The notes under the pieces: generated by a model
The model's input: only the letters and a program-made list of their open reading frames with translations
What the model was told of the DNA's origin: nothing
The model's database searches: none
From: Candidatus Sulfomarinibacteraceae bacterium
GTDB taxonomy: Bacteria; Acidobacteriota; Thermoanaerobaculia; Thermoanaerobaculales; Sulfomarinibacteraceae
Reading direction: 5' to 3'
DNA: 64,000 nt
Assembly (NCBI GenBank): GCA_963796455.1
Contig: CAWCLO010000010.1
Location: 256,001-320,000, forward strand
In this document: piece by piece, positions 2,424-54,575 of the stretch
Position numbering within the stretch: position 1 is the stretch's first letter
Layout of the letters: every line of letters starts with the position of its first letter
Position numbers and translations under genes: made by a program

Positions 2424-2642
2424 CTACTTGTAGCGGTACACGATGCGACCCCTCTTCAAATCGTATGGAGAGAGTTCGACCAGCACCTTGTCGCCCGGAA
2501 GAATGCGAATGAAATGTTTCCGCATTTTTCCGGATATGTGAGCTAATACCCCATGCCCGTTTTCCAACTCGACGCGAAACATTGCGTTGGGCAGGGGTTC
2601 TACGACCGTGGCCACCACTTCGATGGCCTCTTCCTTAGGCAT
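2424..2642 (-). CDS. infA: Translation initiation factor IF-1
   Basis: [38 protein letters not shown]. Confidence 0.97.
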
Positions 2643-3399
2643 TCAATGACTCCTCGGAACCGAGCACACGTGGACCGTCAGCGGTGACCGCCACCGAGCA
2701 CTCAAAATGGGCTGCGAGTCTACCGTCTTCCGTCCTTGCTGTCCAGCCATCATCGTCAATTCGCACCCGCCAACTCCCTCCGGTGATCATCGGTTCGATT
2801 GCAATCACCAGACCGGGTTTGAGGCGTTGACCATGACCGGCCTTGCCATAGTTCGGAACCTGCGGCTCCTCGTGCAGCGCTCGTCCAATACCGTGACCGA
2901 CAAACTCCCGGACCACACCGAATCCGGCGCCTTCGGCCCGCCGCTGGACCGCGGCACCTACGTCTCCGAGCCTGGCGTCAGGGGCCACAACGGCCACCGC
3001 ATCTTCGAGGCACTGGCGAGTGACATCCATCAACCGCCGCGCCTCCGCGCTGACTTCGCCGATTCCGAAGCTGATCGCGGCATCACCATAGAAGCCGTCG
3101 AGCAGGACCCCGCAATCAACACTGACCAGATCTCCAATTTTGAAAACAGCTGCGGCGCTCGGGATTCCGTGGACGATGACATCGTTGATCGAAGTGCATA
3201 GAGTGGCTGGAAAACCGCGGTAGCCCTTGAATGCCGGTACGCCGCCATCCGCCCGAATCATCTCTTCGGCGATCTCGTCGAGATCCTTGGTCGACACACC
3301 CGGCGCCGCCACCTGTTCGACAGCTCTCAGGACCCGGTGCACCAGGCGATTGGCCCGGTCCATGGTCTCGAGCTCACGGTCCGACTTCAGGCAGATCAT
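2635..3399 (-). CDS. map: Type I methionine aminopeptidase
   Basis: [33 protein letters not shown]. Confidence 0.95.
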
Positions 3400-18992: not shown

Positions 18993-19248
18993 GCGGTTCT
19001 AGGGCGTTTTCGGCACATCAGAACGTTTTTTCGCCACCGGAGGGTCTCGAAACTCGCTCCTCGATGCTCGATCACTGCTGTCCAAAACAAATCGTCAGGT
19101 CGAGTTGCCCGCTTGACAACAAGAGGTTTACGGGTCGGTTTTTGGCATTTCCGGTTCGCGGTTTGCCCGTACCGGTACCCGATCCAGAAATACAGCGGCA
19201 GCGACAGCTTCCAGCGACAGGGAGCAGCGATCAGTCTTTGTTAGTCTT

Positions 19249-19306
19249 CAGTGTTCAGTGTTCAGTGTTCAGTGTTCAGCGGCAGCGGCAGCGGCAGCGG
19301 CAGCGA
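19249..19306 (+). repeat. (CAGTGTT)x4 followed by (CAGCGG)x4
   Basis: Directly visible; reverse-complement units CTGAACACTG and CTGCCGCTG occur after the ORF (19867-19882 and onward). Confidence 0.9.
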
Positions 19307-19326
19307 TCAGGAGTCCAGTCGGCGAA

Positions 19327-19466
19327 ATGGCCACCTCCGGGTCGTTCAACAGAAGGGGTAGCCGGTGGGCGGCCGATGTCAAGGACAGGCAGGGTGCAGG
19401 GCATCCTTGACATCGGCCACCACACCGGCTTGTGGGAAAGGGCATGAACGACCCGGAGGTGACCAT
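19327..19466 (+). ncRNA. Putative structured leader RNA (outer 22-bp stem enclosing a long hairpin)
   Basis: 19327-19348 pairs with 19445-19466 (21/22); GGCCGATGTCAAGGA 19371-19385 pairs with 19404-19418; AGCCGGTG/CACCGGCT; near-identical in copy 2. Confidence 0.6.
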
Positions 19467-19818
19467 GTCCTCAGCCGCCACGAACACCAACCTCGTTGCC
19501 CACTCGAAAGCCCTCGAAGCAGCAGGAATTGCGATCAAGCTCGTCATGAGGGTTCCAGCTCCGCTGAAGTCCATAGCCGATCAGGTGATCCGGTCGGCAA
19601 GTTCGGTCCCTGCGAATCTGGCGGAAGGGCACGGCCGAGTCGGTAGAGACCGGTCGAACCACTGGAGAATCGCCTACGCCTCGGCCAAAGAGGTCGACAG
19701 CCACTTGGAGCTCCTCGCCCATACCGGTGCGATCAGTCGGGATCGCGCCATTGAAGCGATGAACGCCTTCGATCAGGTCCGAGCGATGACCTGGCGGCTC
19801 TTGAACCCGACCAAGTAA
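19465..19818 (+). CDS. Four helix bundle protein (23S rRNA IVP / Avd-like family), copy 1
   Basis: 117 aa; DQVIRSASSVPANLAEGHGR...IAYASAKEV signature; GGAGGTG SD just before ATG 19465. Confidence 0.88.
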   Translation: MSSAATNTNLVAHSKALEAAGIAIKLVMRVPAPLKSIADQVIRSASSVPANLAEGHGRVGRDRSNHWRIAYASAKEVDSHLELLAHTGAISRDRAIEAMNAFDQVRAMTWRLLNPTK

Positions 19819-19992
19819 GGGCTGTTCGCCGACGCTGCCCCAGCCGCTGGTTGCTGACGCTGATGACTGAACACTGCCGCTGGCGACTGTTCGCTGCCGC
19901 TGCCCCGGGGCGCTGCCGCCGTCGCTGTCCCTGAACGCTGCCAGAGACTCTGTCTTGGACACGAAAAATCGGGTTTGGGCATCCAGCATCAG

Positions 19993-20020
19993 AAAAAAAG
20001 GGCCGCCCCGAAGGGCGGCC
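19993..20020 (-). terminator. Intrinsic terminator downstream of rpoC
   Basis: Minus strand GGCCGCCC-TTCG-GGGCGGCC then C and T7. Confidence 0.85.
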
Positions 20021-33510: not shown

Positions 33511-33617
33511 GATGCTGGATGCTCGATGCTGGATGCTGGATCTACCCACCCACCCCGTTCGAACCGGCAATTTGAGGTCGATGAGAGTTCTACATCCAGC
33601 ATCTGGTATCCAGTATC
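33511..33617. repeat. Inverted heptamer-repeat hairpin (GATGCTG)n...(CAGCATC)n
   Basis: GATGCTGGATGCTCGATGCTGGATGCTGGAT and CATCCAGCATCTGGTATCCAGTATC; abuts cassette copy 2. Confidence 0.8.
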
Positions 33618-33857
33618 ACTGCTGTCTAAAACAGATTGTCACATGAAGTTACCCACCTGACAACACGTGGTTTACGGGTTGGTTTTTGGCATATCCAGTT
33701 CGCGGTTGCCCCGTGCCCGTGTCCGCGTCCGCGTCCGTGCCCGAATTACAGCGGCAGCGACAGTGTCCAGCGTCAGCGACAGGCAACAGCGGTCAGCGAT
33801 CAGTGTTCAGTGTTCAGTGTTCAGTGTTCAGCGGCAGCGGTCAGGTGCCGTGACGGC

Positions 33858-33998
33858 GTGGCCACCTCCGGGTCGTTCAAGAGAAAGGGGTAGCCGGTGG
33901 GCGGCCGATGTCAAGGACAGGCAGGGTGCAGGGCATCCTTGACATCGGCCGCCACACCGGCTTGTGGGAACGGGCATGAACGACCCGGAGGTGACCAT
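33858..33998 (+). ncRNA. Putative structured leader RNA, copy 2
   Basis: Same nested stems as 19327-19466; inner stem GGCGGCCGATGTCAAGGA/TCCTTGACATCGGCCGCC is a perfect 18 bp here. Confidence 0.6.
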
Positions 33999-34350
33999 GT
34001 CCAACGCCGCCACGAACACCAACCTCATTGCCCACTCGAAAGCCCTCGAAGCTGCAGGCATCGCGATCAAACTCGTGATGAGAGTTCCAGCTCCGCTGAA
34101 GTCCATAGCCGATCAGGTGATCCGGTCGGCAAGTTCAGTCCCTGCGAATCTGGCAGAAGGGCACGGCCGAGTCGGTAGAGACCGGTCGTACCATTGGAGA
34201 ATCGCTTACGCCTCGGCAAAAGAGGTCGATAGCCACTTCAAGCTCCTCGCCCACACCGGGGCGATCAACCGGTATGGAGCCAGTGACGCAATGAACGCCT
34301 TCGATCAGGTTCGTGCCATGACCTGGCGGCTGTTGAACCCGACGAATTGA
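33997..34350 (+). CDS. Four helix bundle protein, copy 2
   Basis: 117 aa; 11 substitutions versus copy 1 by manual comparison. Confidence 0.88.
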   Translation: MSNAATNTNLIAHSKALEAAGIAIKLVMRVPAPLKSIADQVIRSASSVPANLAEGHGRVGRDRSYHWRIAYASAKEVDSHFKLLAHTGAINRYGASDAMNAFDQVRAMTWRLLNPTN

Positions 34351-34474
34351 GTGCTGATAGCTGAACGCTGACCCTGGCAACCGTTCGCTGTCGCTGTCCG
34401 CCGCTCCCCGTCCCTGTCCCCGGTCGCTACCTGAGACTTTGTCCTGGACAAGAGTGATCCGGCATCTCTATCCC

Positions 34475-36417: not shown

Positions 36418-37398
36418 TCAGGGGGTCTCTGCCAGACCGCGGATCAGCCCGGCCAGAAGGGACCAGCGTTCTTCGGCGGTGAGATCGCCATGGGCGCCAA
36501 TCACGAAACGACCCGTGGCGACCGCGGTCCCTTGACCAAGCGCTGGGTCCGAGTACTCGAAACCGGCACTGCCGACTGGTGGTTTGCCATCGCCGATCTC
36601 GCCCCACCGGGCCTGGTGGTTCTGTAATTGTTGCAGCGCCCCGGTGGCGGCGGCACCAGATCCGAGGTCACTGAAGAATACCTGCCCCTCGCGTTCCCCC
36701 GCCCGGTAGACTGCAATGACACCTCCCGGCAGAAAAGAGTGCCCCAGCAGATCCCTGGCGAGATAACGCGGACTCTGCACGACCAATCCATCGCGTGGCA
36801 AGACCGCCAGGATCGACGGCTGATCGGTCGTACCGGGAATCTTCCGACTGACCTCCGAAATCAGCCAATCCACAGCCTCGATCAAGGCAGTGTCTTCCTG
36901 ATCGGCCTCGACGTGGACAAAGACCCGCCCCTTCCAGAAGGCCCCTACGATATCTGAGCGATAACTCTCGGCGCCCCGCGCAGCCGTCACAGCCCCGGGC
37001 GGCCGCATCGATGAGAAGAGGCCGAAAGCACCGAGATCCGAGCCCATATCAAAAATGTCGAGCGTGACACCCGAGTCCGGATCATCTCGCATCTGGTAGC
37101 GGGCGTGGACCAATTCCTGAAATCCGTAACTTTCATAAAGGGGGGCACCGCCGTTGAGGTACTCCCACAGTGTCCCGGGTCGGTATCCGACCGGTTTTTC
37201 CGCCAGCTCCCAGCCATCGAGTTGCGCCGGATCCGGCAACAGATCGATGAGTTGGTCCGTCGCTTCTGAGGGCCCGGGGTCTGCTGCACAGGCGCACAAC
37301 ACCAGGATCACGAGAAGATGGAGGACTCGGCACGCCGGGAAAATGGATCGATTCATGTCGCGCATCACGCCTCCTCTCAGGTCGCAATTATCCACCAA
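36418..37398 (-). CDS. Putative lipoprotein (DUF6599-like); true start probably ~37356-37365
   Basis: Hydrophobic signal ending LCAC; LWEYLNGGA..Y..YGF and IFDMGS..GAFG motifs. Confidence 0.6.
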   Translation of the reverse strand: MVDNCDLRGGVMRDMNRSIFPACRVLHLLVILVLCACAADPGPSEATDQLIDLLPDPAQLDGWELAEKPVGYRPGTLWEYLNGGAPLYESYGFQELVHARYQMRDDPDSGVTLDIFDMGSDLGAFGLFSSMRPPGAVTAARGAESYRSDIVGAFWKGRVFVHVEADQEDTALIEAVDWLISEVSRKIPGTTDQPSILAVLPRDGLVVQSPRYLARDLLGHSFLPGGVIAVYRAGEREGQVFFSDLGSGAAATGALQQLQNHQARWGEIGDGKPPVGSAGFEYSDPALGQGTAVATGRFVIGAHGDLTAEERWSLLAGLIRGLAETP

Positions 37399-54199: not shown

Positions 54200-54298
54200 T
54201 GGCGGAAGCGCAAGGGAATCGAACCCTCCGACCGACCCTATTGAGACCGGCCCAACGGATTTGAAGTCCGCGGAAGCCACCAGGCCCCATGCGCTTCC
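54200..54298 (-). tRNA. selC: tRNA-Sec(TCA)
   Basis: 99 nt; GGAAGCGC/GCGCTTCC extended acceptor, CGGA-CT-TCA-AA-TCCG, long variable arm, GCCA end. Confidence 0.93.

Positions 54299-54499: not shown

Positions 54500-54575
<76 letters not shown>

Follow-up and report, generated by a model that had tools for sequence, protein, structure and literature searches.

A transposase-free cassette with IS4-type ends and a PF05635 gene in a hairpin, repeated across the genome of a Candidatus Sulfomarinibacteraceae bacterium

The window studied here, i.e., the whole stretch of 64,000 nucleotides that was analysed from one contig of a Candidatus Sulfomarinibacteraceae bacterium, contains two copies of a compact unit in which a small gene for a four-helix-bundle protein stands behind a structured leader and between inverted arms. 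This raises the question of what kind of element the unit is, what brought it to its positions and why its gene is retained. An earlier note on the same DNA considered it a dispersed element that is either non-autonomously mobile or a regulatory RNA-protein module. Our analysis points to mobility: taken as a whole, the explanation that we consider probable is that of a non-autonomous, IS4-ended cassette that is copied in trans and that carries a cargo which is selfish in its own right. The parts of this explanation differ in strength and are, therefore, graded separately below.

The cassette and its protein

All listed parts of the unit were found in both window copies, in the order that the earlier note had given. 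The cassette is 840-895 bp in size, with its true ends at 19073-19967 for copy 1 and 33617-34456 for copy 2, and is bounded by CACTGCTGTCCAA and TTGGACAAGAGTG. Relative to the boundaries drawn previously, the leading AT has to be assigned to the target and the element extends some 8 nt further right than TGGACA. A 2-bp AT core or duplication was considered as well and was superseded by a duplication of 9 bp. The (CAGTGTT)x4 run is located at 19249-19276 in copy 1 and at 33801-33828 in copy 2, and the CAGCGG word is repeated four times in copy 1 and twice in copy 2. The features are (window coordinates, strand, description):

19064..19072, plus strand: left target word of copy 1, 9 bp; last part of a run of GATGCTG-type heptamers, agreeing with the right side at 3/9, with the arrays inverted on the two sides
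19073..19090, plus strand: left terminal inverted repeat of copy 1; identical to the 3'-end repeat of IS4-family elements
19091..19163, plus strand: subterminal segment of copy 1 (the conserved segment of ~80 nt), a putative IS4 3'-end remnant from its alignment to the IS4 element L126 of the genus
19193..19310, plus strand: 5' word arm of copy 1, consisting of CAGCGRCAG, (CAGTGTT)x4 and (CAGCGG)x4; complementary to the 3' arm
19329..19467, plus strand: rod-shaped leader of copy 1, 139 nt (predicted fold)
19465..19818, plus strand: 117-aa four-helix-bundle ORF of copy 1 (PF05635 / TIGR02436; profile matches and predicted model)
19819..19945, plus strand: GCTG-rich 3' word arm of copy 1 (sequence and predicted fold)
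19950..19967, plus strand: right terminal inverted repeat of copy 1 (IS4 5' end), its tip decayed in this copy
20001..20020, minus strand: terminator-like hairpin behind the 1462-aa gene (consensus match only)
33608..33616, plus strand: left target duplication of copy 2, 9 bp (ATCCAGTAT), within a CATCCAG-type array
33617..34456, plus strand: copy 2, full cassette of 840 bp, with the leader at 33860-33999, the ORF at 33997-34350 and the right repeat at 34439-34456
34457..34465, plus strand: right target duplication of copy 2 (ATCCGGCAT), 7/9 match

Copy 1 lies between the terminator-like hairpin and a promoter-like site (18992-18964) ahead of rpsL, both consensus matches only, and the 1462-aa gene beside it is rpoC judging from size and gene order; copy 2 has a tRNA-Thr and a SpoU/RlmB gene as its neighbours. 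The window holds only these two copies of the family and no rRNA, and its Rfam matches are tRNAs only. ARAGORN called a tRNA-Asp inside the ORF (19636-19730, minus strand), which is missing from the Rfam matches and is likely a false call on structured sequence. Elsewhere in the window a selenocysteine tRNA (54200-54298, minus strand; ARAGORN and Rfam RF01852) is positioned back to back with a tRNA-Ala at 54500, and a DUF6599 gene (36418-37398, minus strand) is found between frr and ispD.

The ORFs of the two window copies encode 117 aa each and share 90% DNA identity. Both exceed the PF05635 cut-off of 33.8 bits (57.9 for copy 1, 50.8 for copy 2) and the TIGR02436 cut-off of 24 bits (59.9 and 52.6), and four helices are present in the predicted model, whose mean pLDDT is 93.6, which confirms the four-helix-bundle assignment of the earlier note. 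The protein of copy 1 is basic (pI 10.25). The best structural matches of the model are 2GSC and 2RLD (TM 0.79-0.84, 24-28% identity), with five chains each, and the match to Avd (4DWL) is weaker (TM 0.76, E 0.04). More than 4000 clusters of related proteins exist in the protein database. Relatives are described as pentamers in PMC4990558, and PMC10053308 links PF05635 to Avd.

The unit as a whole folds more strongly than expected by chance (z -11.3, 20 shuffles) and does so as nested stems, in agreement with the nested inverted arms reported before; the predicted fold places the ORF within the loop that a long complementary stem closes. The leader by itself has a z of -9.7 (200 shuffles) and the shape of a rod, of which the predicted outer helix of 17 bp (19332-19348/19445-19461) would pair with the Shine-Dalgarno sequence GGAGGTGA (19455-19462), while an inner helix is predicted at 19371-19385/19404-19418. 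Compensatory changes were observed at 13 of 44 leader pairs among 20 sequences, which are kin sequences and hence not independent; this covariation supports the structured leader that had been predicted from the window. The core of the inner helix (19371-19418) is invariant and carries TTGACA on both strands, for which a consensus scan gave no matching -10 box. Arms that belong to one copy show no better pairing than arms combined from different copies (as good in 521 of 2000 permutations), and no sense/antisense asymmetry was seen; the within-genome counts of G-U (26) and A-C (14) changes are too small to use.

Copies, ends and target sites

The unit is not limited to the two occurrences on which the earlier note was based. 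The genome (G000; 5.02 Mb, 90.5% complete) contains 59 gapless near-full ORF copies, one of which has a late stop, and six further copies that are frameshifted, so that 58 of the 65 full-span ORFs are intact; in addition, there are 227 clusters of element parts. Across 19 genomes of the genus the number of protein matches per genome varies from 0 to 98 (fragments and distant paralogues included), with no match in 3 of the 18 relatives, which are 66-95% complete. The copies are mosaics, since linkage falls with distance, a decay that none of 500 permutations equalled, and head-to-tail (circle) junctions were absent from G000. One relative (G006) apparently experienced a recent burst, as 11 of 12 sampled ORFs differ from one another by no more than about 2% (L127-L138); its leaders come in at least two forms, several of them with a further REP-like insert.

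Within the stretch of sequence that was covered at each locus, an ORF match was absent from all 15 rpsL loci and all 15 rlmB-type loci of relatives; of the latter, one is a second paralogue and one is cut by a contig end. The gap between rpoC and rpsL measures 245-1237 nt in the 13 loci of relatives that have both genes, versus 1172 nt here. In most relatives this gap and the rlmB-tRNA gap are occupied by a different hairpin/short-repeat element (L017-L045) and, therefore, both sites are insertion hot spots with a fast turnover. The exception is G013, where a cargo copy without IS ends is located directly behind rpoC (L009, G013:C530, about 1500-1850), outside the rpsL locus, on the rpoC strand and thus in the orientation opposite to that of window copy 1. 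We read this as a separate insertion at a shared hot spot, and it counts against a clean absence. Further copies and cassette-free sites in relatives, which the earlier note had proposed to look for, were thus both found, contrary to the outcome that the note had named as its refutation.

Both window copies are situated in a region of rpo and ribosomal-protein genes and oppose their neighbours, which would suit a host module of RNA and protein that regulates the translation genes nearby. The opposite orientation indeed holds for these two copies, but it is no rule: by rough home-made gene calls, 17 full copies between co-directional genes are opposite versus 9 parallel (p 0.17) and, for all oriented elements, the numbers are 41 and 45. 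Furthermore, the genome-wide neighbours are unrelated and no IS4-framed copy occurs at either site in the relatives examined. Because the sites of the relatives lack the cassette and its orientation is free, the regulatory module is without support and seems scarcely tenable.

The ends of the cassette are the inverted repeats of IS4-family elements of 1.3-1.5 kb that occur in several phyla. A 20-nt pattern of the left terminus was found at 79 loci among GTDB genomes, again in several phyla, and at 40 of these the right end was matched as well; 14 of the latter are 1.3-1.5 kb long with a long ORF that starts at the cassette's right-end sequence, and they show exact 9-bp duplications in nine cases and an 8/9 match in one more. 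All five ORFs scanned from these long elements comprise DUF4372 and DDE_Tnp_1, NF033592 (IS4) was passed by three out of three scanned (249-268 bits; cut-off 115), and the YREK motif is present in 10 of the 14 as well as in the genus element L126. The alignment of the conserved 80-nt segment to the L126 3' end extends beyond the repeat (z 3.2 and 4.3; 0 of 300 shuffles as high), and that to IS4s of other phyla is mostly weak; on this basis, the segment is to be regarded as what is left of the 3' end of an IS4.

Among the 84 paired elements of G000 the 9-bp target duplication is exact in 22 (shuffled mean 1.9, maximum 6) and has at most one mismatch in 43 (shuffled mean 8.4, maximum 16), the remaining 41 pairs having two or more mismatches. 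Exact duplications of 4-8 or 10-15 bp were not found among the 84; four occur at 16 bp, i.e., 9 bp plus one array period. In the window, copy 1 has a damaged right tip and has lost its duplication (3/9), and copy 2 keeps 7/9. A filled/empty pair exists at the rlmB-tRNA site, where an ORF-less element of G005 with the same ends is flanked by two copies of one 9-mer that is present once in G008. In G006 both IS4 ends are present on all 12 sampled copies, eight of which have a duplication of at least 8/9. Target duplications of the IS4 family are about 8-13 bp according to Table 1 of PMC2266710, and the CA ends and 9-bp duplications agree with that family table.

The cassette itself encodes no transposase but a passenger gene instead. 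A cognate IS4 transposase was not found in G000 (90.5% complete) and was found in 1 of 24 other genomes of the genus, and the sole DDE_Tnp_1 gene of G000 has ends unrelated to those of the cassette. This gene belongs to a cluster (G000:C7:280123-292150) that also contains repeated IS91-like ORFs, as judged from the sequence. The outer layer therefore belongs to the non-autonomous IS4 cassettes, which are already known, and is an ordinary vehicle; with the partner not found here and found in a single other genome, we infer, rather than observe, action in trans. The non-autonomous mobility suggested previously is well founded in the many copies, the lineage-specific copy number, the cassette-free sites of relatives, the IS4 ends and the 9-bp duplications. 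It is very likely that the cassette was moved in trans by an IS4 transposase to 9-bp sites, in either orientation. A transposase from elsewhere would bind both ends and excise the cassette, insertion would take place at 9-bp sites, mostly AT-N5-AT in CATCCAG arrays, and the partner would have been lost from G000 or be unassembled there. Candidatus Sulfomarinibacteraceae records also contain MITEs of 250-410 bp that share these ends and for the most part lie in the same arrays.

Of the 84 elements, 52 are inside 7-periodic arrays, versus 2.6% of intergenic positions. These arrays hold 36% of the intergenic AT-N5-AT sites, against which the element excess has a p of 1e-6, a comparison that is partly circular, since the AT-N5-AT consensus was derived from the same insertions; survival at harmless sites may add to the excess. 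Flanking arrays have the same direction on both sides in 42 of the 84 (28 and 14 by direction) and are inverted one way in 10 and the other way in none (p 0.002). IS1272 is described in PMC5678879 as replacing an inverted-repeat target; an adjacent deletion, or recombination of two insertions in one hairpin, would yield the same inverted pattern. The autonomous IS4 (L126:1385-2795) and ISL3 (L147:124-1513) elements are each located between inverted word arrays without a direct duplication, the pattern also seen for the ten inverted cases of G000, and at L147 16 flanking bases are perfectly inverted.

These target data bear on a spread of the unit solely by recombination between heptamer arrays, without any transposase. 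The mosaic nature of the copies, their location mostly in arrays and the failure to find a partner in the genome would all fit such a process. However, exact or 8/9 duplications also occur at targets of other words (e.g., C1:1002094, C4:225208, and C4:405316), both orientations are found (28 and 14 of 84) and the filled/empty pair shows a 9-bp duplication, so very little credence can be given to it. A retroelement, in which a reverse transcriptase copies the unit with the Avd-like protein as an accessory factor, would account for the fold match with Avd (4DWL, TM 0.76) and the structured leader, but it is highly improbable and for G000 largely refuted: the junctions are accounted for by IS4 ends and 9-bp duplications, a PF00078 match is absent from G000 (an incomplete genome) and from the copy-rich G004, 9 of 20 relatives having none, and the minor-allele fractions (A 0.078, C 0.083, G 0.071, T 0.031) reveal no adenine bias. 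DGR-like adenine mutagenesis, suspected from protein variants, was rejected as there is no adenine-specific variation among the copies. Of the co-occurring enzymes suggested by the earlier note, reverse transcriptase is thus lacking in G000 by the PF00078 search. Six Y1 genes occur in G000, but RAYT was rejected as the mover, since the cassette junctions are DDE-type and point to an IS4-family DDE enzyme.

Maintenance and origin of the cargo

In the main ORF-less family, with 58 motif matches inside element clusters, the inner leader and the ORF are replaced by a palindrome pair, which resembles the repeats beside a Y1 transposase gene at L006. That locus (G000:C1:951248-954415) consists of a Y1 (RAYT-like) gene with flanking palindromes and has repeats nested in repeats. 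Nine other copies share one deletion at a 6-nt microhomology, and internal deletions that take out the start are common. ORF-less elements have exact duplications as frequently as the others (9 of 27), are equally common in arrays (32/50 versus 20/34 for ORF-bearing elements, p 0.65) and possess left ends that are near-identical at different sites. Their nearest neighbours are of their own class in 78% versus 50% (0/500), as defined by strict patterns with 27 elements classed as full. The protein is dispensable in cis for the IS4 jump.

The gene is nevertheless constrained. Pairwise dN/dS is 0.16 for the copies of G000, 0.14-0.16 in four relatives (no stops in 33 ORFs) and 0.15 for the frameless copies of G004 (no stops in 15). 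The private-allele estimator, which divides singleton by unseen alleles, yields 0.113 for missense versus 0.463 for synonymous changes (Fisher p 1e-8), and its neutral simulations gave about 1.0, with a minimum of 0.61. For stop alleles, 2 were seen and 29 unseen, versus 37 and 80 for synonymous alleles (p 0.005). Per-allele rates in the same 31 copies amount to 0.021 for the IS end and 0.016 for synonymous, 0.0025 for missense and 0.0028 for leader changes. Purifying selection acts on both the ORF and the leader, also when private changes alone are considered, although private alleles need not have arisen in place because the copies are mosaics and recombination may import them. Neutral decay after insertion had been considered on the basis of a naive singleton ratio of 0.63 (p 0.13 versus neutral); this ratio is biased because synonymous alleles are saturated across the 59 copies, and it was dropped in favour of the private-allele estimator.

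The cargo also occurs beyond the IS4 frame. The IS4-framed cargo genes form one clade (support 100/99; 38 rows, including 10 of the 59 copies of G000). In G014, G005, G008, and G016, cargo copies have GG-type ends and 8-bp duplications; eight loci have both ends, four of them with exact duplications, and the GG-type ends are common to autonomous ISL3 elements (L150, L147). In G017, an intact ISL3 (L150:948-2250) and a cargo copy with ISL3 ends (2513-3186) are separated by about 260 bp in the same array cluster. G004 contains 25 cargo copies without common termini, 22 with neither end type and three with one ISL3-like right end; the 25 may also be old copies with decayed frames. Four distant PF05635 genes of G000 (C4:1278094, C1:983149, C9:2726, C10:733004) are each situated between inverted arms of their own 6-8 nt word. 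In a survey of the arms of nine paralogue loci of the genus, the GATGCTG/CAGCATC arms of L207 are the target words of the IS4 cassette, the AACGTT arms of L212 are those of the ISL3 cassette, and the arms of L208/L209 are the words around the autonomous L126 and L147; a paralogue with GATGCTG arms was not found in G000. The cargo, consisting of the word arms, the hairpin over the ribosome-binding site and the PF05635 gene, is older than the IS4 frame.

As the best of several explanations for the retention of the gene we tentatively favour a cargo that is a selfish unit in its own right, with a protein that acts mainly on its own copy. The leader hairpin would hold translation low, and the basic Avd-like protein would, by analogy, likely bind its own folded transcript or single-stranded DNA and promote the copying or persistence of the very cassette from which it was expressed. 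In that case, cassettes whose gene works would outlive defective ones or overwrite them, and the IS ends would provide the cargo with a second route of spread. Against this, a broken copy would be expected to be rescued by diffusible protein made from the 58 others, unless that protein is cis-acting. The lack of better pairing between a copy's own arms and the lack of a sense/antisense asymmetry count against it as well.

The same IS4 vehicle could also bear a cargo that is kept by selection at the host level, where pooled protein coats or protects the many palindromic word arrays and where, in a large population, even the small share of each copy is visible to selection. This would be in line with selection that acts on many copies at once, with the 213 arrays in G000 that consist of the target word alone and with a protein that needs no cis role for jumping. 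However, the genus-wide range of 0-98 matches, including zero in 3 of 18 relatives (66-95% complete), and a ribosome-binding site that is locked within a 17-bp helix make host-level selection somewhat unlikely. A further alternative is that selection merely avoids harm, missense subunits poisoning a shared oligomer and leader mutations unlocking toxic expression. The relatives are indeed pentameric (PMC4990558; five chains in 2GSC and 2RLD), the leader is constrained as much as the missense sites and internal deletions that remove the start are common. Null changes, however, are depleted too, as is evident from the stop alleles given above, and only six frameshifts occur in 65 full-span ORFs, so that avoidance of harm is decidedly doubtful.

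The selfish cargo that we favour may be taken one step further, in that PF05635 cassettes would be an unrecognised class of self-propagating elements. The protein of each paralogue would recognise its own arm words on folded RNA or single-stranded DNA and would copy or convert its cassette in cis, with protein-bound arrays as landing pads of unrelated transposases. This is an unlikely extension, but if it were true it would explain the repeated capture by IS4 and ISL3, the targeting of arrays and the origin of rRNA intervening sequences.

Relation to known systems

A description of the combination of IS4 ends and a PF05635 cassette was not found in open-access full texts, and nothing on this element was found in PMC8700078 and PMC6542083. 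About 60 copies in G000 maintain a PF05635 gene together with its hairpin leader by purifying selection, which offers a handle on a protein family of unknown function. For specialists, the surprise lies in purifying selection on dozens of paralogues that are dispensable to the transposon. Since the IS4 and ISL3 ends around the gene-in-hairpin design can be identified and their transposases named, both its mobility and the role of the protein can be tested.

MIC231, which is related to IS231 of Bacillus cereus, has IS4-family ends around a passenger gene, lacks a transposase and makes a duplication of about one helix turn. The cassette resembles MIC231-type cassettes in its IS4 ends, its passenger gene, the lack of a transposase and a duplication of similar size. 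Its ends, however, derive from a DUF4372-type IS4, with CA ends and 9-bp duplications, for which IS4Sa is the nearest row by ends and duplication length in Table 1 of PMC2266710. Unlike MIC231, it exists in about 60 gene-bearing copies, targets heptamer arrays, and has a PF05635 hairpin passenger that is also found within ISL3 ends or without ends. REP and REPIN sequences are the repeats of RAYT (Y1) transposases. The main ORF-less derivative is similar to these in its palindrome pair, as found beside the Y1 gene at L006, but this pair replaces the cargo and the cassette junctions are DDE-type.

The closest parallels to the cargo are the 23S rRNA intervening sequences (S23p), in which, according to PMC4990558, a PF05635 gene is likewise located in the loop of a long stem with its translation apparently held down. 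The same source names two untested ideas on the origin of intervening sequences, namely that they are what transposition left behind and that their mobility needs the ORF. The cassette differs from these in being intergenic instead of within rRNA, in its dozens of copies and in its IS ends and duplications. Its ORF is under purifying selection, whereas that of the Coxiella intervening sequence is described as decaying in PMC4990558. With Avd (4DWL), pentamers of which bind an RNA stem-loop according to 10.1101/2023.10.23.563531, the cassette protein shares its basic character and a four-helix fold (TM 0.76-0.80). However, it has only 7-10% identity with Avd, is not accompanied by a reverse transcriptase, a template repeat or adenine mutagenesis, and is closer in structure to 2GSC and 2RLD.
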